DNA of 64,000 bases, taken from sequence record SRR20825019_46. One strand, given 5' to 3'. Below, one piece after another: positions 9,799 to 61,893 of this stretch. Each line of letters starts with the position of its first letter. Within the stretch, counting starts at the first letter, position 1. Position numbers and translations under genes: made by a program. The notes below the pieces were generated by a model, which worked only from the letters and a program-made list of their open reading frames with translations, was not told where the DNA came from and ran no database searches.

Positions 9799-10617
9799 TT
9801 ACTTTTTGAGTGCGTCTACCGCTAACTTCACCGAGCCATATTTCATTAACGCTTTTTCAGCATCTTTATAATCAAGACCAAGCTCCTCCATAATATAGCG
9901 GGTTCCTCTATCCACTAATTTGGTGTTGCTAAGTTGCATATTCACCATTTTATTTCCTTTTACCCTACCTACTCGAATCATAAGGGCTGTGGAAATCATG
10001 TTGAGCACCAATTTTTGGCTGGTACCACTTTTCATGCGGGTGCTACCGGTCAAGAACTCGGGCCCCACGTTCACTTCAATGGGAATATCGGTGGATTGAG
10101 CCAATGGTGAACCCGGATTGTTGGTAATTCCCACTGTTAAAATTCCATGGGCTTTGGCGTCAGCAACCCCGCCAAGAACATAAGGAGTGGTGCCAGAAGC
10201 AGCGATACCCACCAGAACATCATTTTCATTGATACTGTATTCCTGGAGGTCTTTCCAAGCTTGTGCCGTGTCATCTTCTGCATTTTCCACTGCTTTGCGA
10301 ATAGCTTGGTCCCCTCCTGCAATAAGTCCAACCACCTTATCGTAGGGCATTCCGAAGGTTGGCGGAATCTCAGAGGCATCAAGTATCCCAAGTCTTCCAC
10401 TTGTACCTGCACCAATATAAAATAGCCTGCCCCCTTTTTCAAAACGTTTGGCCATTTCATCAACCACTTTTGCCACTTGAGGGAGCACCAACTCAACAGC
10501 ATCCGCTATTTTCTTGTCTTCATTGTTGATATTGGTCACGATATCCAAAGTATCCATTTCATCCAATCGATCATAATTGGATGGTTCCTCAGTAATCTTG
10601 ATATGTTTCTCTACCAC
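9799..10617 (-). CDS. murQ: N-acetylmuramic acid 6-phosphate etherase
   Basis: GAGTSGRLGILDASEIPPTF, AVENAED, GIAASGTTPYV, GPEFLTGSTRMKSGTSQKLVLNMIST, N.KL.DR motifs; GTG start. Confidence 0.95.
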   Translation of the reverse strand: MVEKHIKITEEPSNYDRLDEMDTLDIVTNINNEDKKIADAVELVLPQVAKVVDEMAKRFEKGGRLFYIGAGTSGRLGILDASEIPPTFGMPYDKVVGLIAGGDQAIRKAVENAEDDTAQAWKDLQEYSINENDVLVGIAASGTTPYVLGGVADAKAHGILTVGITNNPGSPLAQSTDIPIEVNVGPEFLTGSTRMKSGTSQKLVLNMISTALMIRVGRVKGNKMVNMQLSNTKLVDRGTRYIMEELGLDYKDAEKALMKYGSVKLAVDALKK

Positions 10618-10621
10618 TACT

Positions 10622-11371
10622 TTATAGTATTTGTATGTTCAAATTTTTGAATGCCTCTAATTTTGCGTCCCAAGGATCCAGTTCTGTAATCATTACATCA
10701 ACCTCCTCTACCCCACATATTTTATAACGCTGCAGGGAGCCTATTTTTTCTGAAATACATGGAGAAACCACTTTTCTGGAACTATGGATCATCGCCTTTT
10801 TCATTTGGACAATCTCCCAATCAAATTCTGTTAAACCTTCCGTAGGATGAATGGAGTTGGTCCCCAAAAAACAAATATCAACCTTTATTTCAGACAGCAT
10901 ATTAATGGCACTACCTCCAATTGTTATCTGGGAATCCTTAGATAAACGACCTCCAATAAAAATAACCTCTATGTTGCTTTTTCCCAATAACTGCACCGCA
11001 ATGGGCAGGCTTGGAGTAAAACAGGTCAGCTTCATTTTTGGCGGCAATTTTCTGGCCAATTCCAAATTGGTCGTACCCCCGCTCAACAAAATAACCTGTC
11101 CATCTTTAATCAAACTCAAGGCTTTCTCCGCAATCTGGGACTTTTTATCCAAAGAATAAATCTTCTTGCCGGTCGGATTATAATTATTAAACCCTAAGGA
11201 AACCGCCCCACCGTGAACCTTTTTCAACTGCTTGGCACTATGTAATTCTTTGATATCCCTACGTATGGTATCGACCGAGACATTAAGCTGATCAGCTACG
11301 TCGGTCAAAAGAATCCTATTATGGATTCCCACCTCGTTGAGTATAAACTGTTGCCTTTCTTCCTTTAACAT
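10622..11371 (-). CDS. DeoR/GlpR family transcriptional regulator
   Basis: MLKEERQQFIL...NVSVDTIRRDIKEL..KKVHGGA HTH plus sugar-phosphate sensor domain (SGGTT, DICFLG). Start moved to the ATG at 11371; the ORF track gives 11431. Confidence 0.92.
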   Translation of the reverse strand: MLKEERQQFILNEVGIHNRILLTDVADQLNVSVDTIRRDIKELHSAKQLKKVHGGAVSLGFNNYNPTGKKIYSLDKKSQIAEKALSLIKDGQVILLSGGTTNLELARKLPPKMKLTCFTPSLPIAVQLLGKSNIEVIFIGGRLSKDSQITIGGSAINMLSEIKVDICFLGTNSIHPTEGLTEFDWEIVQMKKAMIHSSRKVVSPCISEKIGSLQRYKICGVEEVDVMITELDPWDAKLEAFKNLNIQIL

Positions 11372-11410
11372 ATAGTGGGTTAAAGTTAAATAAATATTAA
11401 AGCTCCGAAC

Positions 11411-11500
11411 AAGAACAGCAAAATACAGCAAAAAATTGCAGAATTCAATGACTTATTATCAAAAATAGCAGTTAGTTGCATTATTTGCAGTTTTTTGCAT
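11411..11500. repeat. ~10-bp-phased (C/T)(A/T)GCA direct-repeat array, candidate DeoR operator
   Basis: GCA ends at 11420, 11430, 11440, 11470, 11480, 11489 and 11499, in A/T-rich spacers between the divergent deoR and nagB genes. Confidence 0.55.
11460..11467 (-). promoter_or_regulatory. -7 element for the deoR-murQ transcript
   Basis: CAAAAATA on + reads TATTTTTG on -. Confidence 0.5.
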
Positions 11501-11507
11501 ATATTTG
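11500..11507 (+). promoter_or_regulatory. -7 element for the nagB-susCD operon
   Basis: TATATTTG exact TAnnTTTG match; TTG at 11476-11478 lies 21 nt upstream (-33-like); ATG at 11552. Confidence 0.6.
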
Positions 11508-11551
11508 GAATTAACTTTTCAGCATTTTGCTAGAACATTATAAATTTTCTT

Positions 11552-13459
11552 ATGTACCAGCCTTATCAGGAAGAATTAAGATTTGAAAAAATCCACACTA
11601 TTATTCATGGGGATTCAGATGAAGCTTCGTTGTCAGTTGCCAACGAAATTGCAAGCTTAATCAAGCAAAAACAAGAACAGGGAACCAAAGCTGTTTTAGG
11701 TTTGGCAACAGGCTCCACGCCTGTAAAGGTTTATGATTACTTGGTCCAATTCCATAAAGAAGGAAGACTGAGCTTCAAAAATGTGATCACTTTTAACTTG
11801 GACGAGTACTTTCCAATGGAACCCGACTCCATCCACAGTTATGTACGATTTATGAACGAACACTTGTTCGATCATATTGACATAGAGCCACACAACATCC
11901 ATATTCCCGATGGAAACCTTTCCATGGAGGAAGTGAGAAAGTACTGTGAGGACTACGAAGAAAAAATCAAGAATGTTGGTGGCATCGATATTCAGGTGTT
12001 GGGTATCGGTAGAACCGGACACATTGGTTTTAACGAACCGGGTTCTACCTTGAGCAGCAAAACTCGTTTGATTCGTTTGGACAGGGTAACACGATTGGAT
12101 GCCGCAAGCGACTTTTTTGGCGAAGAGAACGTTCCCAAGAGAGCCATCACCATGGGGGTAGGAACTATTATGAATGCCCGCAAAATCATTTTGATGGCCT
12201 GGGGCGAAGGTAAGTCCAATATTATCCAGCAAGCAGTTGAAGGAGAAATCAAAGAATCCGTACCTGCAACATTCCTTCAGCATCATGAAAATTGTGATTT
12301 TGTTTTGGATGAAGCCGCCGCTTCTTCATTAACAAGAATCAAAACACCTTGGTTGGCAACGGAATGTGATTGGAATGAAAAGCTCATCAAGACCGCCACT
12401 ATTTGGTTATCAGAAAAACTGAACAAAGCAATCCTTAAATTGACCAACGAGGATTACAATGAATACGGCATGGGTAATTTAATTGCTGAAATAGGCTCGG
12501 CCGAACAAATCAACCTTCAGGTTTTCAATCAATTACAACACACAATAACAGGTTGGCCAGGAGGTAAACCCAATGCAGACGATAGTCAAAGACCCGAAAG
12601 AGCTCAGCCTCACCCGAAAACCTCGTTGATTTTTAGTCCTCACCCCGATGATGACGTCATTTCCATGGGAGGAACTTTACTAAGGTTGGTAGACCAAGGA
12701 CACGATGTACACGTGGCTTATCAAACCTCGGGGAACATTGCCGTGTTTGATGACGAAGTAATCCGCTTCTTGGATTTTGCCACGGACATCCAAAAAGAAA
12801 ACAAAGAACTTAGAAAGAAATTTAAAGAAGTTCGCGAATTTTTGGCCAATAAAAAGCCTGGGGAGCTTGACAGTCCAGAAGTACAGCAATTCAAGGGACT
12901 CATTAGAAAAGGAGAAGCATTGGCCGCTTGTAGGTACTGTGGCGTACCAGAAGATAACGCGCACTTTCAAAATCTTCCTTTCTACGAAACGGGTGCGGTT
13001 AGAAAAAAACCTCTTTCGGATGAAGATGTTCAAATAACCTATGACCTCTTGAACAAGCTTAAACCGCATCAAATTTTTGCCGCAGGAGATTTATCCGACC
13101 CGCATGGAACGCACAGAGTATGTCTTCAAATCATATTCAAAGCGCTGGAAAGATTAAAAGAAGATAGAGTGGAGTGGATCAGGAACTGCTACGTATGGTT
13201 GTACCGCGGAGCTTGGCAGGAATGGGACATCGCCGATATGGAAATGGCCGTGCCGATAGGGCCAAAGGATATGTCCAGAAAAATCAACGCTATTTTTAAG
13301 CACCAGTCACAAAAAGACAGTGCCATGTTCCCTGGAAACGATGAAAGGGAGTTCTGGCAACGTGCAGAACAAAGAAATAAAGAAACAGCCAACCGATATA
13401 ACTCGCTCGGTATGGCAGAGTATGAAGCCATGGAAGGCTTTGTGCGCTATCATTTTTAA
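11552..13459 (+). CDS. nagB: Glucosamine-6-phosphate deaminase fused to a PIG-L/LmbE-like deacetylase domain
   Basis: N-terminal LGLATGSTP, TFNLDEY, LGIGRTGHIGFNEPG, AITMGVGTI; C-terminal SPHPDDDVISMGG, DPHGTH, HQSQ. Confidence 0.93.
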   Translation: MYQPYQEELRFEKIHTIIHGDSDEASLSVANEIASLIKQKQEQGTKAVLGLATGSTPVKVYDYLVQFHKEGRLSFKNVITFNLDEYFPMEPDSIHSYVRFMNEHLFDHIDIEPHNIHIPDGNLSMEEVRKYCEDYEEKIKNVGGIDIQVLGIGRTGHIGFNEPGSTLSSKTRLIRLDRVTRLDAASDFFGEENVPKRAITMGVGTIMNARKIILMAWGEGKSNIIQQAVEGEIKESVPATFLQHHENCDFVLDEAAASSLTRIKTPWLATECDWNEKLIKTATIWLSEKLNKAILKLTNEDYNEYGMGNLIAEIGSAEQINLQVFNQLQHTITGWPGGKPNADDSQRPERAQPHPKTSLIFSPHPDDDVISMGGTLLRLVDQGHDVHVAYQTSGNIAVFDDEVIRFLDFATDIQKENKELRKKFKEVREFLANKKPGELDSPEVQQFKGLIRKGEALAACRYCGVPEDNAHFQNLPFYETGAVRKKPLSDEDVQITYDLLNKLKPHQIFAAGDLSDPHGTHRVCLQIIFKALERLKEDRVEWIRNCYVWLYRGAWQEWDIADMEMAVPIGPKDMSRKINAIFKHQSQKDSAMFPGNDEREFWQRAEQRNKETANRYNSLGMAEYEAMEGFVRYHF

Positions 13460-13515
13460 ACTCGCAAAATCTACTCTTTTCAAACTAAACTCAATTAAAT
13501 TAAACTACTCATTTT

Positions 13516-16488
13516 ATGCGAAAACTTCATGATTATCTTGGATTGAGGTTCCGATTGGTTTTGTTCGCGCTTATGGTTTCTACGCTTTCCGCGTTTGGCC
13601 AGAGCCAATATACCTTTACGGGAACCATTACTGAAACCGGCACAAATCTGCCACTGGCAGGCGCATCGGTTTTTGTTGAAAACACATCTTTCGGTACAGT
13701 AACCGATTTTGATGGTAACTACAGCTTTACAGCTACTTTGGACTCCGGTTCGTACAACTTAGTATTCAGTTCGCTAGGTTTTACCACTCAGAAGGTATCC
13801 GTTAATGCTGGCGGAAGCACCACAATAACCAATGACATAGCACTTGCAGAAGACCTTTTGAGTCTTGATGAAGTAGTCGTTACAGGTACGGGATCCGGAG
13901 CCAACAAAAGGGCATTGGGTAACGCTATTTCCTCGGTCAAGGCCGAAGAGCTTACCGACAATGGTGCCACGCAAATTGACCAAGCCATTGCCGGTAAAAT
14001 CACGGGTGCCTTGGTTCAACAGAACTCGGGTGACCCTGCCGGTGGTATCAGTATCCGTTTAAGGGGTCCGAGTACCATAGCAGGTAACTCCGACCCACTT
14101 TATATTGTGGATGGAATCATTATCAGTAATAGCAGTAACGAACTTGTAGACCTTGGGGGTAATGCCCAAAACCGTTTGGCGGACATCAACCCCAACGACA
14201 TCGAGAAAATTGAGGTGATAAAAGGTGCTGCTGCTGCTGCAATATATGGTTCCCGGGCAAGTAATGGTGTGGTACAGATCTTTACAAAACAAGGTAGAAG
14301 CGGCGAACCAAAATTCTCCTTTATGACCAATGTTAGGGTAAACGAACTAAGAAAAGAGATTGATTACAATACCGTACCATTGGCGTGGGAGGTTCCCGGT
14401 GACAGAACCAACTTAGCTACTTACGAAGTAGAACGCTACAACCTTCAAGATTCTTTCTTTGATACAGGTTTCGGAATAGAAAACTACTTATCTATGACAG
14501 GTGGTTCAGAAAAAACATCTTATTACCTGTCCGCTTCTCACTTGGACAATGAAGGTATTGTCGAAAACACCAACTTTAAGAGATATGGTTTCAAAGCCAA
14601 CTTGACTCAAAAAGCATTTGATTGGCTAGATATTACAGGTGGTTTCAACTTTATAAGAAGTGTAAGCAAAGATGTGCCAAATGGTGGTATCAACAATGCA
14701 TATGGCGCGATTACAGGCTTTGTTTTCAGCGATAACTCAATAAATCCCTCACCAGATGAATCCGGAGTTTATCCTATAACTTCTCCTGCAGTTCCAAGAA
14801 CAAATCCTGCCGAGGCCGTGGCCCGATTTGATTTTGGCCAAAAAACCAATCGTTTTATCACAAGTATTGCTTTGGATGCCAACTTTAATGAGCATTTGAG
14901 TGCGAAATATACTTTGGGTATGGATTACTACAATCAGTCTGCGACAGCTTATATCCCAATTGGAAACACATCCCCAAACCCTGATGGATATGCAAGAAGG
15001 GCTGATTTGAACAATTTTCAATACAACTCTGACCTTAATGTGACATACGACACGGATTTAACGGATGCCATTACATCAACTTCTACGTTAGGCGGGTCAT
15101 GGCAGTATGAAGAGCGTGATCGTGTAGGAATTAATGCCACTGGTCTTCCACCCGTTGTTCAGACTGCCACAGGAGGTAGTATATTGGAACAAGGCGAAAC
15201 AAGGTCTCAAATTTCTTACTGGGGTGCTTTTTTACAGCAATCCTTCTCTTTTAACGATAAAATCTACGTGAATGGCGCCGTACGTATGGACGGAGCATCA
15301 ACCTTTGGTGAGGACGAGCGCAACCAGCTGTATTTTAAAGCCAGTGGATCCTATGTAATTTCCGATGAAGATTTTTGGCAGGAATCACTAGGTGGTACGT
15401 TCAACCTATTAAAACTTAGGGCATCTTGGGGTCAAGCTGGTAACTTGACCGCATTGGGAGCCTTTGACAGGTTCTCTATCTACAATCCATCTGCTTTAAC
15501 AGGTTCGGTAAGTTTGATTCCTTCCACGGCCCAGGGTAACGAAGATTTGAAACCAGAAAGACAAGATGAAATTGAACTAGGTTTTGATGCAGGATTGTTC
15601 GACAATAGATTAGGTATCGAATTCTCTTATTATAAACAAAAAGTAACCGATCTTCTTTTGCCAAGGGTATTGGCGCCATCCAGTGGATTTGGCTCCAGAT
15701 TTGAAAATGTTGGCAACTTGGAAAATACAGGTGTTGAGGTTCTTTTAAGAGGTGCCCCGATAAGAACACCCGATTTTAGTTGGAATGTTACAGCAACATT
15801 TTCTACCAACAAAAACGAGGTGACCAGTGTAGCTGGAGGGGGTCGATTAACCTTGGCCGGAAGTTTTTCCACCAACTATGTTATAGAAGGTGAACCACTT
15901 GGTGTATTCTATCGTCAATTCTACGCAAGAAACGAGGATGGATCTATTGCATTGGACGAAGATGGCTATCCTTACAGAGGTACAACGGAAGATGGAGAGT
16001 CCTCTAAGGTAATCGGAGACCCAAACCCAGATTGGTTCGGCTCCTTGATCAATGAGTTCACCTACAAGGATTTTGGACTTAGAGTACAGTTCGATGCCGT
16101 ACAAGGTTACGATGTTTTCAACTGGAACAGAAGATTATTGGACAACGTAGTGTTCGGAGGTGGATACAATGTTGGACAAGAGTTATTGGGCAACCGTCCT
16201 AAAGGTTACGGAAGTGCACAAGCAAACATTTTTGAAGAATTCGTGGAAGATGGATCCTTTGTAAAACTACGAGAGGTAGCATTGAGCTACAATCTTAAAC
16301 CGAGCTGGGAATATATCGACAACATCAAGTTTAGTTTGGTCGGTAGAAACCTATTCTCTTGGGACGATTACTCAGGATGGGATCCAGAAGTTAGTGCTGC
16401 GGGACAAAGCAACGGTGTACGTGGATTCGATTTCGCAACCGTTCCAATTCCAAGAACATATCAGTTAGGCGTTAACGTAAGCTTCTAA
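13516..16488 (+). CDS. susC: SusC/RagA TonB-dependent outer-membrane transporter
   Basis: Signal peptide, GTVTDFDGNY N-terminal domain, LDEVVVTG, PLYIVDG, INPNDIEKIEVIKGAAAAAIYGSRASNGVV plug, C-terminal PRTYQLGVNVSF. Confidence 0.95.
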   Translation: MRKLHDYLGLRFRLVLFALMVSTLSAFGQSQYTFTGTITETGTNLPLAGASVFVENTSFGTVTDFDGNYSFTATLDSGSYNLVFSSLGFTTQKVSVNAGGSTTITNDIALAEDLLSLDEVVVTGTGSGANKRALGNAISSVKAEELTDNGATQIDQAIAGKITGALVQQNSGDPAGGISIRLRGPSTIAGNSDPLYIVDGIIISNSSNELVDLGGNAQNRLADINPNDIEKIEVIKGAAAAAIYGSRASNGVVQIFTKQGRSGEPKFSFMTNVRVNELRKEIDYNTVPLAWEVPGDRTNLATYEVERYNLQDSFFDTGFGIENYLSMTGGSEKTSYYLSASHLDNEGIVENTNFKRYGFKANLTQKAFDWLDITGGFNFIRSVSKDVPNGGINNAYGAITGFVFSDNSINPSPDESGVYPITSPAVPRTNPAEAVARFDFGQKTNRFITSIALDANFNEHLSAKYTLGMDYYNQSATAYIPIGNTSPNPDGYARRADLNNFQYNSDLNVTYDTDLTDAITSTSTLGGSWQYEERDRVGINATGLPPVVQTATGGSILEQGETRSQISYWGAFLQQSFSFNDKIYVNGAVRMDGASTFGEDERNQLYFKASGSYVISDEDFWQESLGGTFNLLKLRASWGQAGNLTALGAFDRFSIYNPSALTGSVSLIPSTAQGNEDLKPERQDEIELGFDAGLFDNRLGIEFSYYKQKVTDLLLPRVLAPSSGFGSRFENVGNLENTGVEVLLRGAPIRTPDFSWNVTATFSTNKNEVTSVAGGGRLTLAGSFSTNYVIEGEPLGVFYRQFYARNEDGSIALDEDGYPYRGTTEDGESSKVIGDPNPDWFGSLINEFTYKDFGLRVQFDAVQGYDVFNWNRRLLDNVVFGGGYNVGQELLGNRPKGYGSAQANIFEEFVEDGSFVKLREVALSYNLKPSWEYIDNIKFSLVGRNLFSWDDYSGWDPEVSAAGQSNGVRGFDFATVPIPRTYQLGVNVSF

Positions 16489-16505
16489 TCTTAAAAAAAT
16501 TGACA

Positions 16506-17846
16506 ATGAAATTTTACAGATATAACACATATAAGCTGATGTTTCTGCTAACAACCGTATTAGCATTTACATCTTGCGAAACCGATTTTGATAATCCAAA
16601 TGCCGCAACCAGCGATCAGGTTTTCTCTTCGAGAGAAGGTATCTTGGCTGCAACCACTGGAATGCAGGAACTGTATTCCACAACAGGTTTGCGATACATT
16701 ATAGAAACACCTGCGATAACAACAAGAGAAGCCGGTATTACCACCACTTTTCAAAACATGATCGATCTAGAGGATGGAGGGGATATTCCAAATACAAACT
16801 CAAATGTAATTGGACTCTGGACCACCATGCTCAGAGTAATAGGTATTGCCGAGGATATTTCAGCAAATGCCGCAACCATAGACATTGATCCAGGAACTCA
16901 AAGTGGATTGATTGCCTATGCAAACCTATACCATGCAATGAGTATTGGCGCCATGGCTCAAAGTTATGAGCAAGTTATTGTGGCAACATCAGAAGACAAC
17001 CCTCCTTTTGTTTCACGTATCGAAGGTTTTAACACTGCCATTACTTTGTTGAACGAGGCTAAAAATACGTTGGCCGCCAATCCAGTTTCTTCAGAATTTG
17101 AAGAAGAGATATTGAGAGGACAAATCGACTTGGAAAACACTTTGGATGCTATGTTGGCAAGGTTTAACCTGTACGCTGGCAATTATGATGCTGCCATTGC
17201 TGCGGCAGCAGAAGTAGACCAATCATCAACTTCTGTGTTCAGCTACGATTCACAAAATCTAAATCCTATTTGGGCAAGGGTATATCAAAATGGAACTCCA
17301 AACTTTAAACCAAGAGATAATTTTGGATTACCAGATTCATTTGATATCGACGAAAATGATGGTAGGACCGAGTTCTACTTAATTCCATTGGACACATTAA
17401 ATCTTAACCAACTTCCTATCGAGGATCTAGCCGGTTTTTTTGATGAAGAGAATGGATCAGAGTCAATTCCATTATATCTACCAGATGAAATGAACTTGAT
17501 CATTGCCGAGGCCAACCTCAGGAAAGCTTCCCCAGATACTGGCGCGGCCATTACAGCCTTAAACTTAGTGTTGACCGACACAGATGATGTGTTCGGAGTA
17601 AACGCCAATTTACCTGAATATGTAGGAGACACTTCAGTAAACGCATTGTTGAACGAAGTTTATAAAAATAGGAGAATAGAATTGTTCTTGACAGGTGCAA
17701 GCTTGGAGGATAGTAGAAGATTTGGAAGGCCGGAACCAACTCCATCTGTCCAAAATTTTGAGGAAGAACGAAACAGAAACTTCTATCCTTATCCTAACAC
17801 TGAAAGAGATAACAATACAAACACACCGGCTGACCCAGCCATCTAA
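16506..17846 (+). CDS. susD: SusD/RagB family nutrient-binding lipoprotein
   Basis: Directly after susC; lipobox FTSC; EMNLIIAEA and RRIELFLTGASLEDSRRFG resemble the SusD C-terminal motif; PYPNTE. Confidence 0.88.
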   Translation: MKFYRYNTYKLMFLLTTVLAFTSCETDFDNPNAATSDQVFSSREGILAATTGMQELYSTTGLRYIIETPAITTREAGITTTFQNMIDLEDGGDIPNTNSNVIGLWTTMLRVIGIAEDISANAATIDIDPGTQSGLIAYANLYHAMSIGAMAQSYEQVIVATSEDNPPFVSRIEGFNTAITLLNEAKNTLAANPVSSEFEEEILRGQIDLENTLDAMLARFNLYAGNYDAAIAAAAEVDQSSTSVFSYDSQNLNPIWARVYQNGTPNFKPRDNFGLPDSFDIDENDGRTEFYLIPLDTLNLNQLPIEDLAGFFDEENGSESIPLYLPDEMNLIIAEANLRKASPDTGAAITALNLVLTDTDDVFGVNANLPEYVGDTSVNALLNEVYKNRRIELFLTGASLEDSRRFGRPEPTPSVQNFEEERNRNFYPYPNTERDNNTNTPADPAI

Positions 17847-17888
17847 AAGGTTAATGTTTTTAAGTTGTTAGTTGTTTAATTAATCTTT

Positions 17889-17926
17889 AAAAGGCCTACA
17901 TTTAGTGCATACGTAGGCCTTTTTTT
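17889..17926 (+). terminator. Intrinsic terminator-like hairpin after susD
   Basis: AAAAGGCCTAC / GTAGGCCTTTT stem followed by a T-run. Confidence 0.7.
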
Positions 17927-17935
17927 ATCATATAT

Positions 17936-19420
17936 ATGCGTCGATTTGTTTACATTCTCCCCCTTATTTTTTTGTTTTCCTGCGCTACCGTAAAAGCGCC
18001 AAAAAAAGAGTTTAGGGGCGTGTGGATAGCTACAGTGGCCAATATTGACTGGCCCAAACATCCCAATGACGATGTTTCCAAGAAAAAAAGGGATTTCATC
18101 GAAATCCTTGACTTCTATCAAAATATGAATTTTAACGCGGCCATCGTACAGGTACGCACAGCGGGAGACGCCCTCTACCCTACCGATTTGGCACCTTGGT
18201 CAAGATACTTGTCAGGAGAGGAAGGAACTGCTCCACAGGGATTCGACGAACCATTGAAATGGATGATAGAAGAAACGCACAAGCGCGGCATGGAGTTCCA
18301 CGCTTGGCTCAATCCGTACAGGGCCACGGTTAGCCCGGACACTTCTTTACTTTCCCAAAAGCACGATTATTACCAACACCCCGATTGGATCATACAATAC
18401 GGGAAAAAGAATTATTACAATCCTGGGATACCAGCAGTCAGGGAAAAATTCAATAAAATTATTGAGGAACTGGTAACGCTTTACGAAGTGGACGCCATCC
18501 ATTTTGATGATTATTTCTATCCCTACAAAGTAGAAGGTGAAATTTTTGATGATGCAGCAACCTATTCCAAATACGGTTTGCCCGATCAAACATTGGAAGA
18601 TTGGCGCCGTAGCAATGTGGATTCCCTGGTACAGGATGTCCATAAAACCATAAAAAAGCACAAGCCGTGGGTTCAATTTGGAATCAGTCCTTTTGGAGTC
18701 TGGAAAAACAAAAGCACCGACGCTATGGGTTCCGATACCAAAGCGGGACAAACCACCTACGAAGATCTATTTGCCGACCCCGTACTTTGGGTCCAAGAAG
18801 GCTGGCTGGATTATTTGGCCCCACAAGTTTATTGGAGCATGGACTATCCGGTGGCATCCCATAAGATCATAACATCTTGGTGGGACCAGCACACACCCAA
18901 CACCAATCTATACATCGGAAATGGCACCTACAAAATAAAGAACAACGCCGACAAGGCTTGGGACAAAAATAATGAGATTCCAAAACAGTTGAACTTTGCC
19001 CGGGAATTGGACCACATTGATGGAAATATTTTCTTTAGTGCCAAATCATTGATAGGTCAGCATGAAAAAGTAAATGAGAAGCTTCAAAAGAAGTATTATC
19101 GTTTGCCTGCCGAAAACCCAGGACCACTCAACAAAGTTGTTCGAGAAGTTCAATTACCGGCCATCAAATCCGTTCAGTTGAACGAACAAATTTTGACTAT
19201 CTGCATCAACCATACAGATGAAATCCCGCGATTTCTAAATCTTTATACATCTAAAAAAGAAAAACACCAACTCGTTGGAAAACAATATCTTTCGGAGAGT
19301 GATATGGAAGGATGCTATCAATTTCAACTGACCAAAAAGCAGTTACGAAACGATATACAAATCAATGTTAGCGATGTTTATGGCAACAAAAGTGCTATGC
19401 TACCATTAAACGTAAATTAG
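17936..19420 (+). CDS. GHL10/DUF187 glycosyl hydrolase lipoprotein (YddW/DigH-like)
   Basis: Lipobox LFSC; EFRGVWIATVANIDWP, GMEFHAWLNPYR, DAIHFDDYFYP, FGISPFGVW, DYLAPQVYW motifs. Confidence 0.88.
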   Translation: MRRFVYILPLIFLFSCATVKAPKKEFRGVWIATVANIDWPKHPNDDVSKKKRDFIEILDFYQNMNFNAAIVQVRTAGDALYPTDLAPWSRYLSGEEGTAPQGFDEPLKWMIEETHKRGMEFHAWLNPYRATVSPDTSLLSQKHDYYQHPDWIIQYGKKNYYNPGIPAVREKFNKIIEELVTLYEVDAIHFDDYFYPYKVEGEIFDDAATYSKYGLPDQTLEDWRRSNVDSLVQDVHKTIKKHKPWVQFGISPFGVWKNKSTDAMGSDTKAGQTTYEDLFADPVLWVQEGWLDYLAPQVYWSMDYPVASHKIITSWWDQHTPNTNLYIGNGTYKIKNNADKAWDKNNEIPKQLNFARELDHIDGNIFFSAKSLIGQHEKVNEKLQKKYYRLPAENPGPLNKVVREVQLPAIKSVQLNEQILTICINHTDEIPRFLNLYTSKKEKHQLVGKQYLSESDMEGCYQFQLTKKQLRNDIQINVSDVYGNKSAMLPLNVN

Positions 19421-19426
19421 ACCCTT

Positions 19427-19909
19427 ATGCAGGATATGCTTGTGCGACTTTTGGACCTACCGGATATTTCAGAAGAGGAAAAAAATCTTTTCGAGATGGA
19501 AGGCATTGTCTTTAAAAGACCTATTACACCAGAAAGGAGTATTGTGGTGGACTGGGTCGGTAAGCATTTCAGCAAAAATTGGGCAGATGAGGCTGAAGCT
19601 GCATTTTCATCACTCCCCGTAAACTGCTATATCGCCCAGCGAGAACATGAGATTCTTGGTTTTGCCTGTTTTGAAAGTACCGCAAAAAACTTTTTTGGCC
19701 CCACGGGGGTTCTCAACAAGGAAAGAGGAAAAAATATAGGTAAAGTCCTTTTGGTAAAATCATTGATGGCACTAAAAGAAATGGGATATACCTATGCCAT
19801 TATCGGAGGTGTTGGACCCGTTTCCTACTACGAACAAACAGTAGATGCAAAAATCATCGATAAATCGGAAAAAAGCATTTATCAAAACCTTTTAAAACAA
19901 CCCAAATGA
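19427..19909 (+). CDS. GNAT family N-acetyltransferase
   Basis: FFGPTGV..ERGKNIGKVLL acetyl-CoA-binding loop; GYTYAIIG..GPVSYY. Confidence 0.85.
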   Translation: MQDMLVRLLDLPDISEEEKNLFEMEGIVFKRPITPERSIVVDWVGKHFSKNWADEAEAAFSSLPVNCYIAQREHEILGFACFESTAKNFFGPTGVLNKERGKNIGKVLLVKSLMALKEMGYTYAIIGGVGPVSYYEQTVDAKIIDKSEKSIYQNLLKQPK

Positions 19910-21186
19910 ATGTAGCTCCGAAAGACAAAAATGCTTGGCTGTGGATTCCATTTCTATATTTCACACAAGGAATACCATACATTCTAGTGGTCACAGTTTC
20001 CGTGATTATGTACAAACGGTTGGGAATTGGCAATGCCGAAATAGGATTGTACACCAGTTGGTTATACCTCCCATGGGTGATAAAACCTCTTTGGAGCCCG
20101 ATTGTTGATTTGAACGGCACCAAGCGCAAATGGTTTTTGGCCATGCAATTGGTAATTTCAATGGCATTTTTAGGAATTGGACTGTTTCTTCCCTCCAATT
20201 CATTTTTTATAATAACGTTAGCGTTCTTTTGGATGGCTGCTTTCGCCTCCGCCACCAATGATATTGCTTCCGATGGGTATTACATGATTGGACTTACTCA
20301 GAAAAAGCAATCCTTTTTTATTGGACTCAGAAGTACATTTTATCGGTTGGCCATGGTTACCGGACAAGGGCTTTTAGTGATTTTCGCAGGTTTTTTGGAG
20401 AATAAGTATGGTGATAATACCAAAGCATGGTCCGTTACTATGATAAGTGCTGCCGTTTTAATGATCATATTGACCGTTTCCAACTTTTTTACGGCACCAA
20501 AATTTGAAGAAACCACAACCGAACCCACTGAAAAACCAGCGGGTTTTTTTGAAGTATTCGCTACATTTTTTAAAAAACATCAAATCGGAGCGGCCCTTTT
20601 ATTTGTTTTGACGTACAGATTGGGTGAGTCACAATTAGTAAAAATGGCATCACCTTTTTTACTGGATGATTTAGAAGTGGGCGGATTGGCCTACTCCACC
20701 GAAGCCGTCGGAACTATTTATGGAACAGTCGGTATCATCATGCTATCACTAGGAGGAATCCTAGGAGGAATTTTAATTTCCCGTGACGGTCTTAAAAAAT
20801 GGATGCTTCCTATGTTATTGTCACTTAATTTACCCAATGCCCTTTATGCACTTCTTGCCATAACACAGACCACAAGTCTGTATGCAGTGGTAGGCACTGT
20901 TGTTCTAGAACAATTTGGATATGGATTCGGCTTTGCCGCATTTATGATGTATTTGATTTATGTGGCAGAAGGTGCTTCCAAAACTTCACATTATGCCATT
21001 GCCACCGGTTTTATGGCTCTGGGCATGATGTTGCCCGGTATGCTGAGCGGTTATATTCAAGAATGGCTAGGGTACGATGGCTTTTTTATCTGGGTGGTCA
21101 TTGCCGCCCTGCCCGCATTTTTTGTGTTACGCTATTTAAAATATCCTGCCGATTATGGTAAAAAAACGGCTGAATCCAATGACTAA
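19906..21186 (+). CDS. ampG: AmpG-like muropeptide MFS permease
   Basis: About 12 hydrophobic segments; LYFTQGIP, LPWVIKPLWSPIVD, RKW, ASATNDIASDGY AmpG-type motifs; ATGA overlap with the GNAT gene. Confidence 0.85.
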   Translation: MNVAPKDKNAWLWIPFLYFTQGIPYILVVTVSVIMYKRLGIGNAEIGLYTSWLYLPWVIKPLWSPIVDLNGTKRKWFLAMQLVISMAFLGIGLFLPSNSFFIITLAFFWMAAFASATNDIASDGYYMIGLTQKKQSFFIGLRSTFYRLAMVTGQGLLVIFAGFLENKYGDNTKAWSVTMISAAVLMIILTVSNFFTAPKFEETTTEPTEKPAGFFEVFATFFKKHQIGAALLFVLTYRLGESQLVKMASPFLLDDLEVGGLAYSTEAVGTIYGTVGIIMLSLGGILGGILISRDGLKKWMLPMLLSLNLPNALYALLAITQTTSLYAVVGTVVLEQFGYGFGFAAFMMYLIYVAEGASKTSHYAIATGFMALGMMLPGMLSGYIQEWLGYDGFFIWVVIAALPAFFVLRYLKYPADYGKKTAESND

Positions 21187-22771
21187 CATATCGAAAACTT
21201 ATACACTTCCCGCTGAACCATTGACCTTAAAACAAAAAGTTGGTCAATTGTTTATGCCCGCTGTTTTCATAAACGATACCGAAGAAGAGCTACAACAAAT
21301 GGAAAAACTTATCAAGGAACAGTATGTAGGTTCCATTTGCTTTTTCCACAGTAGGGCCAGTGCGGCCACCAATTTTGAAGGGAAGAAAAAGATTGTTCAC
21401 AACGAAAAAAGCTACGACCGGTTATTGGAACTTATCGATCGTTATCAAAATGCGGCAAGCGTTCCCTTATTGATTGCCATTGATGCCGAATGGGGCCTTG
21501 CCATGCGTATTGAAAACACACAACAATATCCGTATGCCATTACGTTAGGAGCCTTACAAGATAACCATGAGCTTGTTTTTAAGGTCGGTGAAGCTATCGG
21601 CCAGGATTGTAGAGCAGCAGGCGTACAATGGAATCTCGCCCCGGTTGTGGACATCAACAATAATCCAGAAAATCCTGTAATCGGCTACCGTTCTTTTGGG
21701 GACGACAAAGAAAAAGTTCTTGGAAAAGCTGATGCATTCATCAAAGGAATGACCCATAGCGGAACCTTGAACTCCATAAAACACTTTCCCGGACATGGCG
21801 ACACGGCCACAGATTCCCATTTGGGACTGCCCGCTATAGACAAATCCATGGATGAGCTTATGGAGAATGAGCTGTATCCTTTTAAAAAATTGATAGCATC
21901 CGGTGTAGACTCCGTGATGGTTGGCCATTTGCTCCTGCCGCAACTGGATTCCGATAATCCATCTACCACATCGTCCAAAATTATTTCAGGTTTGCTGAGA
22001 AAACAATTGAGGTTCGACGGGGTCATTATTTCCGATGCTTTGAATATGCATGCCGTTTCCAAAAGATACCCTGAAAAAGGAAAACTGGAATACGCCGCTT
22101 TTGCAGCGGGCATGGATGTGCTCTGTTTTAGCGAAAATGTGAAAGAGGGTATCGATGAAATCCTCACGCAGGCTAGCGAGCATCGAATCCAAGAAAGTTT
22201 TGATAGGGTCTGGGAGTTGAAGAATACGGTTTTCAATAAAGAAAATCATTCGGAAATCCATCCTACTGAACAGGAAAAAAGCTCCAATTTGAACCAAGAA
22301 ATCGCCATCAACAGTATCACGGAATTGTTTGGCAATTCAGCTCTGTTCAATGAGTTGAAAAACAACGATTTTTTGAATGTTTCGGTCAGTTTTGATAAAA
22401 AAAATCGATTTTCCGAGCAAATTTCATCCATTTTTGGTTCAAAAACCATGAATTTGGATGAAGCACTTCTATCAAAAAAAGAATGGGTCCTTCTCAGTAT
22501 ATTTCCTCCAGCCGTAAAGCCTAAAGACCAGTTTGGCTTTAATGAAAAAACATTAGCTGAAATTCATAGATTATTGGCAGAAAAAAACACCATGATCTAT
22601 TTGTTCGGCAATCCTTACGTGCTGGATATTTTACAATTGAAACCATCATCCAATGTGGTAGTGATCTATCAAGACTTTCCAGAATTTCAAGAAGTCGCAT
22701 TTGAACACTTTTCTGGGAATATTGAAGCTCGGGGCCAACTTCCCATTCAATTAAAAACCTTCCGACCATGA
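21179..22771 (+). CDS. nagZ: GH3 beta-N-acetylglucosaminidase (NagZ-type) with C-terminal domain
   Basis: KHFPGHGDTATDSH (NagZ Asp-His dyad motif), IAIDAEWG, NLAPVVD, GYRSFG, ISDALNM nucleophile region; no signal peptide. ATG at 21179 preferred over 21155. Confidence 0.88.
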   Translation: MTNISKTYTLPAEPLTLKQKVGQLFMPAVFINDTEEELQQMEKLIKEQYVGSICFFHSRASAATNFEGKKKIVHNEKSYDRLLELIDRYQNAASVPLLIAIDAEWGLAMRIENTQQYPYAITLGALQDNHELVFKVGEAIGQDCRAAGVQWNLAPVVDINNNPENPVIGYRSFGDDKEKVLGKADAFIKGMTHSGTLNSIKHFPGHGDTATDSHLGLPAIDKSMDELMENELYPFKKLIASGVDSVMVGHLLLPQLDSDNPSTTSSKIISGLLRKQLRFDGVIISDALNMHAVSKRYPEKGKLEYAAFAAGMDVLCFSENVKEGIDEILTQASEHRIQESFDRVWELKNTVFNKENHSEIHPTEQEKSSNLNQEIAINSITELFGNSALFNELKNNDFLNVSVSFDKKNRFSEQISSIFGSKTMNLDEALLSKKEWVLLSIFPPAVKPKDQFGFNEKTLAEIHRLLAEKNTMIYLFGNPYVLDILQLKPSSNVVVIYQDFPEFQEVAFEHFSGNIEARGQLPIQLKTFRP

Positions 22772-23433
22772 GCAATGAGATAAAGGCGTCGTGGAACAAG
22801 AATGCACAAGAATGGATAAAAACCATTCAAAACAATGCCATTCCATCCAGAAAGTTTACGAATCCGGCCATTCTGGAGGCTATTAAAGAGGTACGGGGGA
22901 ATACCATTGTGGACATAGGTTGTGGCGAAGGTTGGCTAACTCGTGAAATGAAAAGTTTGGGATGGACGGCAACTGGATTGGATGCTACTGAAGATTTAAT
23001 TATAGCCGCTCGAGAACAAAGCAACCAGACCTTTGAGGTGTTCACTTTTGAAGATATCATCAAAGGGGAAAAGATGCCCAATCCACCTTTTGATGCTGCC
23101 ATCTTCAATTTCTGTCTTTATGGAAAAGAGGATGTTATCCCATTGATCACAAAAACCCTAAATCAACTGACCACAGAGGGAACTGTTTTAATCCAGACAC
23201 TACATCCCTTTTTTCTTATTCAAAATGGCTTGGCCTACAAGGGGCAATGGGTGTCAGATTCTTGGAATGGGCTGCCGGGCAATTTTACGGACGGACACTC
23301 GTGGTACGCCCGGACCATGGAAGATTGGGTCCAAGAACTCAATCAAATTGAACATATTGAATTCAATATCAAGGAAATCTTGAACGATGATGATAAACCG
23401 ATTTCCCTGATTATAAAAATCAATAAGATATGA
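22768..23433 (+). CDS. Class I SAM-dependent methyltransferase, substrate unknown
   Basis: IVDIGCGEGWL motif I, TGLDA, FDAAIFNF; ATGA overlaps on both sides. Confidence 0.85.
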   Translation: MSNEIKASWNKNAQEWIKTIQNNAIPSRKFTNPAILEAIKEVRGNTIVDIGCGEGWLTREMKSLGWTATGLDATEDLIIAAREQSNQTFEVFTFEDIIKGEKMPNPPFDAAIFNFCLYGKEDVIPLITKTLNQLTTEGTVLIQTLHPFFLIQNGLAYKGQWVSDSWNGLPGNFTDGHSWYARTMEDWVQELNQIEHIEFNIKEILNDDDKPISLIIKINKI

Positions 23434-24515
23434 GGATATATAAAGTTATGGGACTGATGTCGGGAACCTCTTTGGACGGATTGGACATTGCCTATTGCCA
23501 TATTTGGGAGGAAGATGGAAAATGGAGCTTTTCCATTAAAAAAACTGCGGAAATCGATTATTCCGATGAGATGCGGGAATACCTCAAAAATGCGATTCAT
23601 CTTTCTAAAAAAGACCATAATCAATTACATAAAGATTACGGTATTTGGTTAGGGCAACAAACCAAAGCATTTATAACCGAATTGGATGAAGAGGTAGATT
23701 TTATTGCCAGTCACGGGCATACCTCCCACCACCGGCCAGACGACGGCGTTACCTTTCAATTGGGTGATGGGCAACTTTTGGCAAACACTTCTGGAAAACA
23801 AGTAGTCTGTGATTTTAGATCTAAGGATGTGTCCCTAAAAGGCCAAGGGGCCCCACTGGTTCCCATTGGTGATAAATTACTCTTTCATGAATATGATTTT
23901 TGCCTAAACCTAGGAGGTATAAGCAATATTTCTTTCGATAAAAATGGTGAACGGATTGCCTACGATATCGGTTTAGCGAACATGCCCCTTAATTACATCA
24001 CCCATAAAATGGGATTGGCCTATGATGAAAATGGAAAGATTGCAAGATCTGGGAAATTGAACCATGCTCTGCTTCAAAAATTGAACAATCTAACTTATTA
24101 TGCTCTCCCCTATCCAAAATCCACTGGATACGAATGGTTTTCTTCTGAAATAACGCCCTTAATTGAGGGGTCCAAGCTTTCAAATGAAGACTTACTGCAC
24201 ACGTTCATTCATCATAATTGTGAACAGATTGCTTTTGCAGCACTGAAGCACAAGAACAATGGAAAATCCAAAAGTAAACTTCTAGCGACCGGTGGTGGGG
24301 CGCTAAACCAATTCTTTATGGATACGCTTCAAAATAAACTCGGGAGCAGTATTGAGGTCGTGGTACCCACCAAAACGCTTATTGCATACAAAGAAGCGTT
24401 GGTTTTTGCCTTAATGGGCGTACTTCGGTTGGAAGGGGAAACCAATGTACTCAAATCAGTTACCGGCGCGACTTCAGATTCCTGTAGCGGGGAAGTATTT
24501 TTTCCGAGCAACTAA
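23430..24515 (+). CDS. anmK: Anhydro-N-acetylmuramic acid kinase
   Basis: GLMSGTSLDGLD, SHGHT, DFRSKD..GQGAPLVP, LNLGGISN, PKSTG.E, GGGA.N, KEALVFA. Confidence 0.94.
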   Translation: MRIYKVMGLMSGTSLDGLDIAYCHIWEEDGKWSFSIKKTAEIDYSDEMREYLKNAIHLSKKDHNQLHKDYGIWLGQQTKAFITELDEEVDFIASHGHTSHHRPDDGVTFQLGDGQLLANTSGKQVVCDFRSKDVSLKGQGAPLVPIGDKLLFHEYDFCLNLGGISNISFDKNGERIAYDIGLANMPLNYITHKMGLAYDENGKIARSGKLNHALLQKLNNLTYYALPYPKSTGYEWFSSEITPLIEGSKLSNEDLLHTFIHHNCEQIAFAALKHKNNGKSKSKLLATGGGALNQFFMDTLQNKLGSSIEVVVPTKTLIAYKEALVFALMGVLRLEGETNVLKSVTGATSDSCSGEVFFPSN

Positions 24516-24516
24516 T

Positions 24517-25731
24517 TTAGGATGCGGCTATACGTTTGCGTTTGGGCAAATGGGTCAAAAGAAACAGTGCCAGAGCAACCATACCGCAGATGGCCAAACC
24601 TGCAAAAAGGGGCCATACACTATCCTTTACAAAATCACCGATAAACGTAGCGATAGGAATAGAAAGTACGGTTGATACAAACCCATTTATGGCAGCTCCA
24701 ATTCCAGCAATATGGCCAATGGGCTCCATGGCAATGGAACGGAAATTACCCCACATAAATCCAAGGCAGAAAAATTGTACTGACAAAAATCCGACCAACA
24801 CATATATACTTGGATTTGGTGAATTCAAAAACAAAAAAGAATAGGTCAAGGCCACCATACAGAATACGATTGTGGCCATCAACGACAACCTTCTCATTCC
24901 AAAGCGCATCACCAAAGTACCATTCATAAAGGTTGATAATCCAATAGATACGGCCAAACCTGCAAAGATGTATGGAAACACTTCCTTAAGCGCATATTGA
25001 TCTTCAAAAATGTGCTGTGCTGAGCTTAAATACACCAAAAATGCACCAGTGACCAATCCAGAAATCAAGGTAAAGGCTACGGTCTCCCTATATTTTACAA
25101 ATTCTTTTACACCATCAATAAATACATGCCGGGTAAATGGAATCTTATATTCAGGATGCAGCGTTTCCTGCTGGCGTTTCCAGAACCAGAAAGCAACAAC
25201 TAATACAAAGAACATCTGCACATAAAAAATGCCCTGCCATCCAGTTGCGTCCAAAATCAATTTTCCGATTGCAGGAGCCACCACGGGCACCAAAATAAAA
25301 AACGCAGTTACAAAAGACATGATCTTGGCCATGTAATCACCTTCATAAGTATCTCGGATAATGGAAATTGAAATGGTTCTTGGCGCGGACAGTCCAATTC
25401 CCTGTAAAATCCTTCCCACCACCATAACCTCCAATGAGGGCGCCATCAAACATATAACACTGGCCACCAAAAAGATGGAAAAACCCATGTAAACTACTGG
25501 TTTTCTCCCAAAACTATCGGAAATGGGTCCAAAGAAAAGCTGCCCAACGCCCAATCCCAAGAAAATCATGGTCACCAATAACTGATGGTCTGTAGAATCT
25601 GTACTGTTGATTGCATCGCCTATGTTGGAAATTGCGGGCAGTATCGCATCAATTGCCAAGGCTACAATCGACATCAATGCGGCCATCATGGCCACAAATT
25701 CAAAGTTGGGTTTTTGATTTAACTTTTCCAT
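24517..25731 (-). CDS. Bcr/CflA family MFS efflux transporter
   Basis: ALAIDAILPA, GQLFFGPISDSFGRKP, GRILQG, IIRDTY..MAKIMS, APAIG; about 12 TM segments. Confidence 0.9.
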   Translation of the reverse strand: MEKLNQKPNFEFVAMMAALMSIVALAIDAILPAISNIGDAINSTDSTDHQLLVTMIFLGLGVGQLFFGPISDSFGRKPVVYMGFSIFLVASVICLMAPSLEVMVVGRILQGIGLSAPRTISISIIRDTYEGDYMAKIMSFVTAFFILVPVVAPAIGKLILDATGWQGIFYVQMFFVLVVAFWFWKRQQETLHPEYKIPFTRHVFIDGVKEFVKYRETVAFTLISGLVTGAFLVYLSSAQHIFEDQYALKEVFPYIFAGLAVSIGLSTFMNGTLVMRFGMRRLSLMATIVFCMVALTYSFLFLNSPNPSIYVLVGFLSVQFFCLGFMWGNFRSIAMEPIGHIAGIGAAINGFVSTVLSIPIATFIGDFVKDSVWPLFAGLAICGMVALALFLLTHLPKRKRIAAS

Positions 25732-59744: not shown

Positions 59745-59812
59745 GGATTAAATTTTACCAGTTGGTCGAAAAGCCCTTTTTATAATTACAGGAATGGCTA
59801 TTTTTACCCCCT

Positions 59813-60613: not shown

Positions 60614-60616
60614 GCT

Positions 60617-61849: not shown

Positions 61850-61893
61850 TTTTTGTTGTTTAGATAATAAGATTATAGTAAATTTAATATACT

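Follow-up and report, generated by a model that had tools for sequence, protein, structure and literature searches.

A 64,000-nt stretch of the sequence record SRR20825019_46 (hereafter, the window) contains a locus in which a SusC/SusD pair, the importer type of canonical polysaccharide utilization loci (PULs), is found among genes for the recycling of peptidoglycan amino sugars. The question raised is what an outer membrane importer may be doing in such company. The initial annotation of the window proposed a PUL for feeding on exogenous peptidoglycan, such as bacterial necromass. The comparisons reported here make it fairly probable, in our judgement, that the locus is the cell's single operon for the recycling and catabolism of peptidoglycan amino sugars, with a built-in outer membrane SusC/SusD importer for wall fragments.

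Gene content and copy number of the locus

All eleven open reading frames (ORFs) of the locus are present in the ORF list of the window at the coordinates reported below. Two of them, murQ and deoR, are on the minus strand and divergent from nine plus strand genes (11552-24515), which follow each other in the order nagB–PIG-L, susC, susD, GHL10, GNAT, ampG-like, nagZ-like, methyltransferase (MT) and anmK. Gene order and divergent arrangement, as originally described, are borne out by ORF coordinates and family assignments.

9799-10617, minus strand: murQ, N-acetylmuramic acid (MurNAc)-6-phosphate etherase, 272 aa (TIGR00274, 314.8 bits against a cut-off of 302; NF003915, 381 bits)
10622-11371 (longest ORF to 11431), minus strand: deoR-family repressor, 249 aa (HTH_DeoR and DeoRC)
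11552-13459, plus strand: nagB–PIG-L fusion, glucosamine-6-phosphate deaminase and probable N-acetylglucosamine (GlcNAc)-6-phosphate deacetylase (NF002557, 1073 bits; TIGR00502, 265 bits; PF02585 match)
13516-16488, plus strand: susC, SusC/RagA-type TonB-dependent outer membrane transporter (TIGR04056, 618.7 bits against a cut-off of 368.25; TIGR04057 signature, 49.3 against 46.2)
16500-17846, plus strand: susD-like, putative surface lipoprotein (SusD/RagB fold of the model; lipobox Cys26 followed by E-T-D-F-D)
17936-19420, plus strand: GHL10 lipoprotein, Cwp19-like, probable lytic transglycosylase (PF02638, 241.6 bits; match to PDB 5oq2)
19427-19909, plus strand: 160-aa GNAT, glucosamine-N-acetyltransferase-like by fold (structural model and PDB fold matches)
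19906-21186, plus strand: ampG-like permease of the major facilitator superfamily (MFS) (TIGR00901, 183.9 bits, below the cut-off of 350; E 3.8e-54, full length)
21155-22771, plus strand: GH3 beta-N-acetylglucosaminidase, NagZ-like (PF00933, 251.8 bits; NF003740, 169.8 bits against 207)
22768-23433, plus strand: class I S-adenosylmethionine (SAM)-dependent methyltransferase, MT (Pfam methyltransferase families)
23430-24515, plus strand: anmK, anhydro-MurNAc kinase (NF007144, 502.2 bits against a cut-off of 436; PF03702, 222 bits)

Curated Pfam/NCBIfam cut-offs are exceeded by MurQ, AnmK, SusC and NagB–PIG-L. The pairs GNAT/ampG, nagZ/MT and MT/anmK overlap by 4 nt each, while the ampG/nagZ overlap measures 32 nt when the longest ORF is considered, or 8 nt if nagZ starts from the ATG at 21179; given this start, the genes form the chain of short overlaps previously claimed. 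Gaps of 6 nt and 11 nt separate GHL10 from GNAT and susC from susD, respectively. The deoR start is probably the ATG at 11371, and not 11431, because the orthologues are 249 aa long.

The closest relatives of the window SusD are from Flagellimonas (formerly Muricauda/Allomuricauda), with identities of 98% in F. aurea and 95-96% in F. oceanensis, and the source genome is a Flagellimonas. Its assembly consists of 4.4 Mb in 111 contigs, is rated 100% complete and carries the window on contig C40. A tblastn search with the locus proteins located MurQ, DeoR, SusD, GHL10, GNAT, AmpG, MT and AnmK at a single place in the genome each, and family searches for AnmK and AmpG agree, with one match each. 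Separate housekeeping copies of ampG and anmK, proposed as a check of the scavenging interpretation, were looked for in this complete genome and none was found, AmpG, AnmK and also MurQ being single-copy. Because no separate housekeeping set exists, the cell must also recycle its own wall through this operon, which is therefore not an additional feeding locus. As to nagZ, a paralogue does exist, in the form of a GH3–beta-lactamase fusion on contig C1, and is not part of a second system.

This paralogue, the exo-muramidase NamZ, located on contig C2 among unrelated genes, and a second NagB–PIG-L fusion on contig C22 were evaluated as traces of another PUL for peptidoglycan or chitin in the same genome and discarded, none of them being a second copy of the system. 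One Amidase_2 gene is also found away from the locus. The second NagB–PIG-L fusion (59% identical; G000:C22:96642-98507, L093) is surrounded by genes for an N-sulfoglucosamine sulfohydrolase, a GH109 enzyme, a GHMP kinase (GalK), a nucleotidyltransferase, a LacI regulator and a sodium:solute symporter (SSF) family transporter; judged from these neighbours, the cluster looks like a catabolic locus for sulfated amino sugars, of the N-acetylgalactosamine or GlcNAc type.

In SusC, both the plug and the TonB_dep_Rec_b-barrel domains are matched. SusD is weakly recognized by sequence: its Pfam match (PF07980, E 0.0014, 18.8 bits) is below the gathering score of 23.1, a PDB search with the single sequence gave nothing significant, and a profile of 20 orthologues matches PDB 3jq1 only at E 0.0047. 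Orthologues are named RagB/SusD in the source annotations. An AlphaFold model, built on 30 sequences in which Cys26 is invariant, has a predicted local distance difference score (pLDDT) of 87.9 and a predicted template modelling (TM) score of 0.88. Its listed PDB fold matches are dominated by SusD, RagB and SGBP-A (TM 0.56-0.71), the top ones being all SusD/RagB (TM 0.6-0.7, identity 11-16%), and include NanU of B. fragilis (4l7t). On the strength of the model, the protein is a divergent family member with a true SusD fold. Acidic residues following the lipobox cysteine are, in Bacteroidota, a signal for lipoprotein export to the cell surface. By this rule SusD would be surface-exposed, and the GHL10 lipoprotein, in which the non-acidic residues A-T-V-K come after the lipobox Cys16, would face the periplasm.

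Residues 23-387 of the GHL10 lipoprotein match the catalytic domain of Cwp19 (PDB 5oq2) at E 1.4e-96. Cwp19 is described as digesting peptidoglycan to 1,6-anhydromuropeptides, and GHL10 is named there as a new lytic transglycosylase domain (PMC6016235). By analogy, the window protein is probably a lytic transglycosylase, and an enzyme of this type would make exactly the substrate used by AmpG, NagZ and AnmK. The two proteins differ in that Cwp19 is reported as a Gram-positive surface autolysin of Clostridioides difficile with CWB2 repeats (PMC6016235), whereas the window one is a lipoprotein, differs over its C-terminal 100 aa or so and is encoded inside a catabolic locus. The genome has its housekeeping lytic transglycosylases at other places (two genes with SLT domains and one for MltG/YceG), and for this reason GHL10 is regarded as an extra enzyme tied to the locus.

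A TIGR00221 search of the genome revealed no NagA above cut-off (top match 29.8 bits against 225.65). Since NagA was not found in this way, the PIG-L domain fused to NagB is likely to be the GlcNAc-6-phosphate deacetylase replacing it. No signal peptide was seen in the NagZ-like protein, which is extended at its C terminus by about 180 aa not assigned to a family.

Conservation of the linkage and candidate regulatory signals

Related loci were collected by using a profile of 20 SusD orthologues, which identified 80 loci from species-representative genomes, all Flavobacteriaceae-like and with SusD 56-98% identical. After dropping 14 loci shorter than 20 kb, 66 were left and evaluated by tblastn (E up to 1e-8, at least half of the query covered). 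SusC is present in all 66, MT in 64, DeoR in 62, AnmK in 55, MurQ in 53, GHL10 and NagZ in 52, AmpG in 51, NagB–PIG-L in 39 and GNAT in 28. A second set comprised the 76 loci longer than 18 kb with a SusD orthologue (12 out of 88 were dropped for length), and 64 of these contain AnmK, MurQ or NamZ within 10 kb of it. The co-occurrence of susCD with MurNAc genes in other genomes, a check set by the original proposal, is thus found, and in at least five distinct arrangements, which are better evidence than the locus counts.

Among the variants, SusCD is followed by NamZ and MurQ in L030 and L079, the latter containing in addition an SSF gene, GH3, GH20 and an MR_MLE enzyme. The order is SusCD-MT-AnmK-SSF-MurQ in L050, L052 and L059, and MFS-GH20-MurQ-SusC-SusD-MT-GHL10-SSF-MR_MLE-NlpC/P60 in L083 (G235:C10). 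Four loci from another family (L086, L087, L089, L090; SusD 35-39% identical) contain NagB–PIG-L divergent from AnmK-SusC-SusD, and genes for DeoR, GHL10 and a NagX-like protein are found in the vicinity. In some arrangements other peptidoglycan enzymes are swapped in, namely NamZ, the sodium:solute symporter, the epimerase-like enzyme and the NlpC/P60 peptidase. No GH18 or GH19 chitinase was seen in the Pfam-annotated loci. At 3058-5326 of L083, genes for stem-peptide catabolism, encoding an MR_MLE enzyme (L-Ala-D/L-Glu-epimerase-like) and an SH3+NlpC/P60 peptidase, are joined to the sugar genes.

MT is the closest partner of SusCD, as resulted from the comparison of the profile-fetched loci. 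In a class sample of 401 evenly drawn genomes it was detected in two, the source genome and G235, in both cases beside a SusD orthologue. A profile of 30 MT orthologues matches PDB 3e8s over its full length (E 1.3e-48), an entry whose function is unassigned, and MT is without an assigned step or mechanism in the route proposed below.

The GNAT sequence gives weak Pfam matches (E 0.003 to 0.009), and a PDB search with the single sequence gave nothing significant. A model based on 24 sequences (pLDDT 87.5) has the GNAT fold, and its top Foldseek matches, at identities of 15-16%, are 4zm6 (TM 0.72) and 5kgh/5kf1 (TM 0.68-0.69). All are glucosamine N-acetyltransferases; the first is one domain of a fungal fusion protein that also contains a GH3 N-acetylglucosaminidase, and the others come from Clostridium acetobutylicum. 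The same PDB entries are on top when a sequence profile is used, only at E 0.07, which is not significant. Based on the modelled fold, GNAT would probably re-acetylate glucosamine from de-N-acetylated peptidoglycan. ESM Atlas returned generic names only for both MT and GNAT. The two proteins had been taken as hints of undescribed steps: for GNAT the fold suggests glucosamine re-acetylation, while for MT no step could be assigned. Genes of the HGSNAT_cat type (NagX-like transmembrane acetyltransferases) were observed near SusD orthologues at loci without the small GNAT, in L029, L086, L087, L089 and L090, and may be an alternative route to glucosamine re-acetylation.

Two candidate regulatory elements were identified within the locus.

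11477-11499, no strand assigned: candidate DeoR operator, three TGCA words phased by about 10 nt, in the divergent deoR/nagB promoter region
17889-17923, plus strand: terminator-like hairpin with a U run after it, in the susD/GHL10 intergenic region (fold of 17847-17935)

A TAnnTTTG-like element, the consensus of which we take to be the Bacteroidota -7 box, is located just downstream of the TGCA words. Within the 220 nt upstream of deoR in 74 loci, 295 TGCA words were found against 61.5 expected, and 61 of the loci contain at least three. The words are most often spaced by 10 nt (75 cases), then by 19 nt (23) and 9 nt (17). Within the source genome, an 18-mer across the candidate operator has no second match at up to two mismatches, and there is no enrichment of triple-TGCA arrays, with 4 sites where about 3 would be expected from TGCA frequency; the other three sites, inside genes or unrelated spacers, look like chance matches and were discarded. 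Because enrichment is missing in its own genome, the operator idea rests on cross-locus conservation, among loci that are mutually related. The sequence pattern is consistent with a single local regulon in which DeoR would govern both divergent units, with the TGCA repeats as candidate operator. The region 17847-17935 folds at -19.9 kcal/mol (z = -3.93 against 200 shuffles), and the hairpin may attenuate read-through into the GHL10-anmK genes. A sigma-70 scan, in which promoters of other types are not covered, found fewer promoters than in shuffled sequences (21 against 37.2) and 13 terminators against 18.0, and was not used.

Nine short identical contigs from X4 and X7, rRNA-depleted marine metatranscriptomes of one study, fall on murQ, nagB, the 5' end of susC and the neighbouring MFS gene; they are a weak hint of transcription of the locus, DNA carry-over being possible, and parts of the locus not covered by contigs carry no information. 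The RNA-labelled runs X1 and X2 were rejected as expression evidence: their contigs, of 14 and 74 kb and about 93% alike, look like DNA from a related strain.

Proposed route and alternative explanations

If the locus is an operon for recycling and catabolism with its own importer, soluble wall fragments, i.e. glycan pieces or muropeptides of foreign origin or leaked from the cell's own turnover, would be caught by surface SusD and brought into the periplasm by TonB-energised SusC. There, the outer membrane-anchored GHL10 would cut MurNAc-GlcNAc bonds to produce GlcNAc-1,6-anhydroMurNAc, with or without peptides, and the AmpG-like permease would move the anhydro products to the cytoplasm. GlcNAc would be taken off by the GH3 NagZ and the peptide by an amidase encoded elsewhere. 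AnmK would then yield MurNAc-6-phosphate, to be converted by MurQ to GlcNAc-6-phosphate and D-lactate; the PIG-L half of the fusion would deacetylate GlcNAc-6-phosphate and the NagB half would lead to fructose-6-phosphate. The small GNAT would probably re-acetylate glucosamine deriving from de-N-acetylated walls, and DeoR, probably sensing a sugar phosphate, would control both divergent units from the phased TGCA repeats.

Judged by its genes, from which we infer the substrate, the locus probably serves the import and catabolism of muropeptides or wall-glycan fragments, and wall material released by other bacteria is probably also a food source for this marine flavobacterium. No surface-exposed endo-enzyme is evident in the locus, and intact necromass would be a less likely substrate than soluble fragments. 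The necromass-feeding PUL initially proposed is therefore retained in part: the linkage of SusCD to MurNAc genes holds across genomes, but the locus doubles as the cell's own recycling operon, 12 of the 76 loci are unlinked and a split form exists.

A number of observations weigh against the proposed operon. At the enzyme level, the permease is below all three AmpG cut-offs (besides TIGR00901, NF008867 with 116.7 against 656 bits and NF008238 with 110.7 against 756); it is named AmpG-like because AmpG is still its best-matching family and the match is full-length. A functional AmpG, that of Tannerella forsythia, is reported to be only 27% identical to E. coli AmpG (PMC7670621). Similarly, NagZ is the best family for the GH3 enzyme, yet the NF003740 score is below cut-off. 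No amidase is encoded in the locus, GHL10 is the sole candidate for a surface endo-acting enzyme and is predicted to face the periplasm, and the NagB fusion would suit any GlcNAc-containing substrate equally. The hairpin divides susD from the downstream genes. At the genome level, no MurNAc gene was found within 10 kb in 12 of the 76 loci (L040, L042, L044, L058, L066, L067, L071, L073, L075, L084, L085, L088), and for five of them (L042, L044, L058, L066, L073) AnmK is elsewhere in the genome. The genome of L073, G403, contains MurQ-DeoR divergent from NagB–PIG-L-GHL10-AmpG-NagZ-AnmK, without SusC, SusD and MT, and, at a separate place, DeoR-SusC-SusD-MT with its own DeoR paralogue. The linked loci are mostly from few related genera (Flagellimonas, Arenibacter), so that the counts overstate independent support. 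Within the class sample, the SusD orthogroup occurs in 10 of the 401 genomes, including the source genome and a weak match in G132 (27% identity, later left out). Five of the eight strong foreign matches keep MurNAc genes within 10 kb, and L084, L085 and L088 have none. As nearly all genomes of the class sample have AnmK (377 of 401; 375 of 399 without G180 and G094, flagged as unpublished) and the SusD orthogroup is rare, SusCD-linked recycling is a minority architecture.

The split form shows that two modules can work apart, and the window locus is best seen, on comparative grounds, as two modules merged. They might even be unrelated and simply lie side by side, a housekeeping recycling operon next to a SusC-SusD-MT importer of some other glycan, e.g. 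chitooligosaccharides, sharing only the NagB exit and a DeoR-type regulator. This would agree with G403, with the 12 loci holding SusCD, with or without MT and DeoR, away from MurNAc genes, with MT tracking SusCD and not the recycling genes, and with the hairpin after susD; the NagB–PIG-L, GH3, GH20 and NagX-like genes of related loci would suit GlcNAc glycans too. We consider it unlikely, since AnmK, MurQ or NamZ lie directly beside SusCD in five arrangements, one of them in another family, and the Pfam-annotated loci contain no GH18/GH19 chitinase. In addition, both G403 modules have DeoR paralogues 57-58% identical to the window DeoR and similar TGC-repeat motifs, the separate recycling operon being preceded by a TGC-N-GTTTTTTGC motif. 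Import by SusCD-MT of a non-glycan or other small molecule modified by MT, its place in the recycling operon reflecting regulation only, seems very improbable. MT is indeed co-inherited with SusCD (64 of 66 loci; 2 of 401 genomes) and has no role in the textbook pathway, and some SusCD/RagAB pairs carry peptides or proteins (PDB titles 6sln, 8ypt), but MurNAc genes are linked in 64 of 76 loci and the DeoR regulator, of sugar-phosphate style, stays by SusCD even in the 6 loci where only DeoR and MT are kept beside it.

The importer could also serve self-recycling only, SusCD recapturing the cell's own anhydromuropeptides leaked through the outer membrane, with no feeding on foreign walls. The sole ampG, anmK and murQ matches of the genome being in this locus, and no surface lytic enzyme being evident there, are in line with such a role. 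Most of the class, however, recycles without this SusCD pair, as the AnmK and SusD frequencies indicate. Furthermore, an importer cannot distinguish own from foreign fragments of the same chemistry, and for this reason the explanation differs from the preferred operon with importer only in ecological weight; in its exclusive form we hold it quite unlikely. An extension of the preferred operon is proposed tentatively, and with considerable doubt, in which SusC-SusD-MT would be a dedicated outer membrane uptake system for anhydromuropeptides or wall-glycan fragments, accompanied by two undescribed cytoplasmic steps, a SAM-dependent methylation tied to the imported substrate and glucosamine re-acetylation by GNAT. 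If this were true, SusC-SusD-MT would be the missing outer membrane step of peptidoglycan scavenging in Bacteroidota, and through GNAT re-acetylation even walls made lysozyme-resistant by de-N-acetylation could be consumed.

In the sea, much carbon and nitrogen is contained in peptidoglycan, the turnover of which is fast. Passage of its fragments across the Bacteroidota outer membrane is not described in the literature searched, including papers on the MurNAc auxotroph T. forsythia, and no experimental SusCD pair or PUL for peptidoglycan fragments was found there, PULDB, supplements and subscription journals being outside its scope. A SusCD pair whose orthologues stay by AnmK, MurQ or NamZ in several unrelated arrangements is a concrete candidate for this step. 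GHL10 is not known as a CAZy family; for this reason, a PUL substrate prediction based on carbohydrate-active enzymes would miss the locus, only GH3 being visible. The locus also raises enzyme questions, concerning GHL10 as a Gram-negative periplasmic lytic transglycosylase, PIG-L in the place of NagA, and the roles of MT and GNAT.

Comparison with known systems reveals partial similarities. The salvage cluster of T. forsythia (Tanf_08345-08385, encoding AmpG, MurT, MurK, MurQ and others) is likewise a Bacteroidota cluster with AmpG and MurQ, acting on exogenous peptidoglycan fragments, and growth on peptidoglycan and muropeptides is reported to need AmpG (PMC7670621). That cluster relies on MurT and MurK, with no AnmK predicted in T. 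forsythia (PMC7670621), while the window locus has AnmK and adds GHL10, GNAT, MT and a catabolic NagB exit, and its host is not known to depend on external MurNAc as an auxotroph. No MurT-type symporter or MurK was seen in it beside the AmpG-like protein and MurQ, SSF symporters being found in the variant loci. In the available text of the T. forsythia papers (PMC7670621, PMC5388701 and the NamZ1/2 preprint) no SusC/SusD or TonB-dependent importer is named: 'TonB' is absent from that of PMC7670621, where 'outer membrane' appears in one cited title only, and 'outer membrane' appears once, in a figure legend, in that of PMC5388701.

With E. coli-type recycling (lytic transglycosylases, AmpG, NagZ, AmpD, AnmK, MurQ, NagA, NagB) the locus shares the logic of AmpG-like permease, NagZ-like GH3, AnmK and MurQ. 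It differs in gathering these genes in one locus with SusCD, in a GHL10/Cwp19-type transglycosylase, in NagA being apparently replaced by PIG-L fused to NagB, and in a DeoR-type regulator instead of the MurR reported there (PMC9177960). Like canonical Sus-type PULs, it combines adjacent susC/susD with glycoside hydrolases (GH3, GHL10) and a local regulator (DeoR); unlike them, it has no evident surface endo-glycanase and no hybrid two-component system or extracytoplasmic function sigma regulator, and a cytoplasmic recycling pathway lies downstream. The NanOU pair for sialic acid indicates that SusCD-like pairs can serve small acidic N-acetyl amino sugars (PMC3969230). Lapébie et al. (PMC6499787) report that several predicted PULs do contain GH families targeting peptidoglycan, but that these families are strongly under-represented overall, and by term counts over the accessible text a 2026 review of glycoside transporters does not mention muropeptides (PMC13543919). 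A GH3 gene beside anmK is noted in a Maribacter paper (PMC11345257).

Neighbouring genes and strain variation

Placement on contig C40 covers positions 1-58957 of the window only; the remaining 58958-64000, about 5 kb, are off the contig, though the window contains no N. Outside the locus, the following genes were recorded.

207-8522, minus strand: 2771-aa protein with SprB repeats and a type IX secretion system type-B C-terminal sorting domain; paralogues on contigs C38 and C27
8675-9793, plus strand: glucose/sorbosone dehydrogenase of the pyrroloquinoline quinone type (GSDH, 442 bits), convergent with murQ at a 5-nt gap; kept in 52 of the 66 related loci
24517-25731, minus strand: Bcr/CflA-type MFS efflux gene, convergent with anmK; kept in 36 of the 66
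25918-26979, plus strand: GFO/IDH/MocA oxidoreductase; kept in 13 of the 66

The SprB-repeat protein is a giant gliding or adhesion surface protein. In G403 and G405, too, the Bcr/CflA-type MFS gene recorded here is near anmK, at a distance of about 4 kb.

The region 21709-23019, comprising 3' nagZ and 5' MT sequence, is far more diverged between close strains than its flanks. In the F. aurea locus (L003), NagZ and MT are 71% and 81% identical, respectively, against 93-99% for the neighbouring genes, and the contigs of runs X1 and X2 carry 1296 other letters in place of this region. The divergence looks like local recombination or allele replacement.

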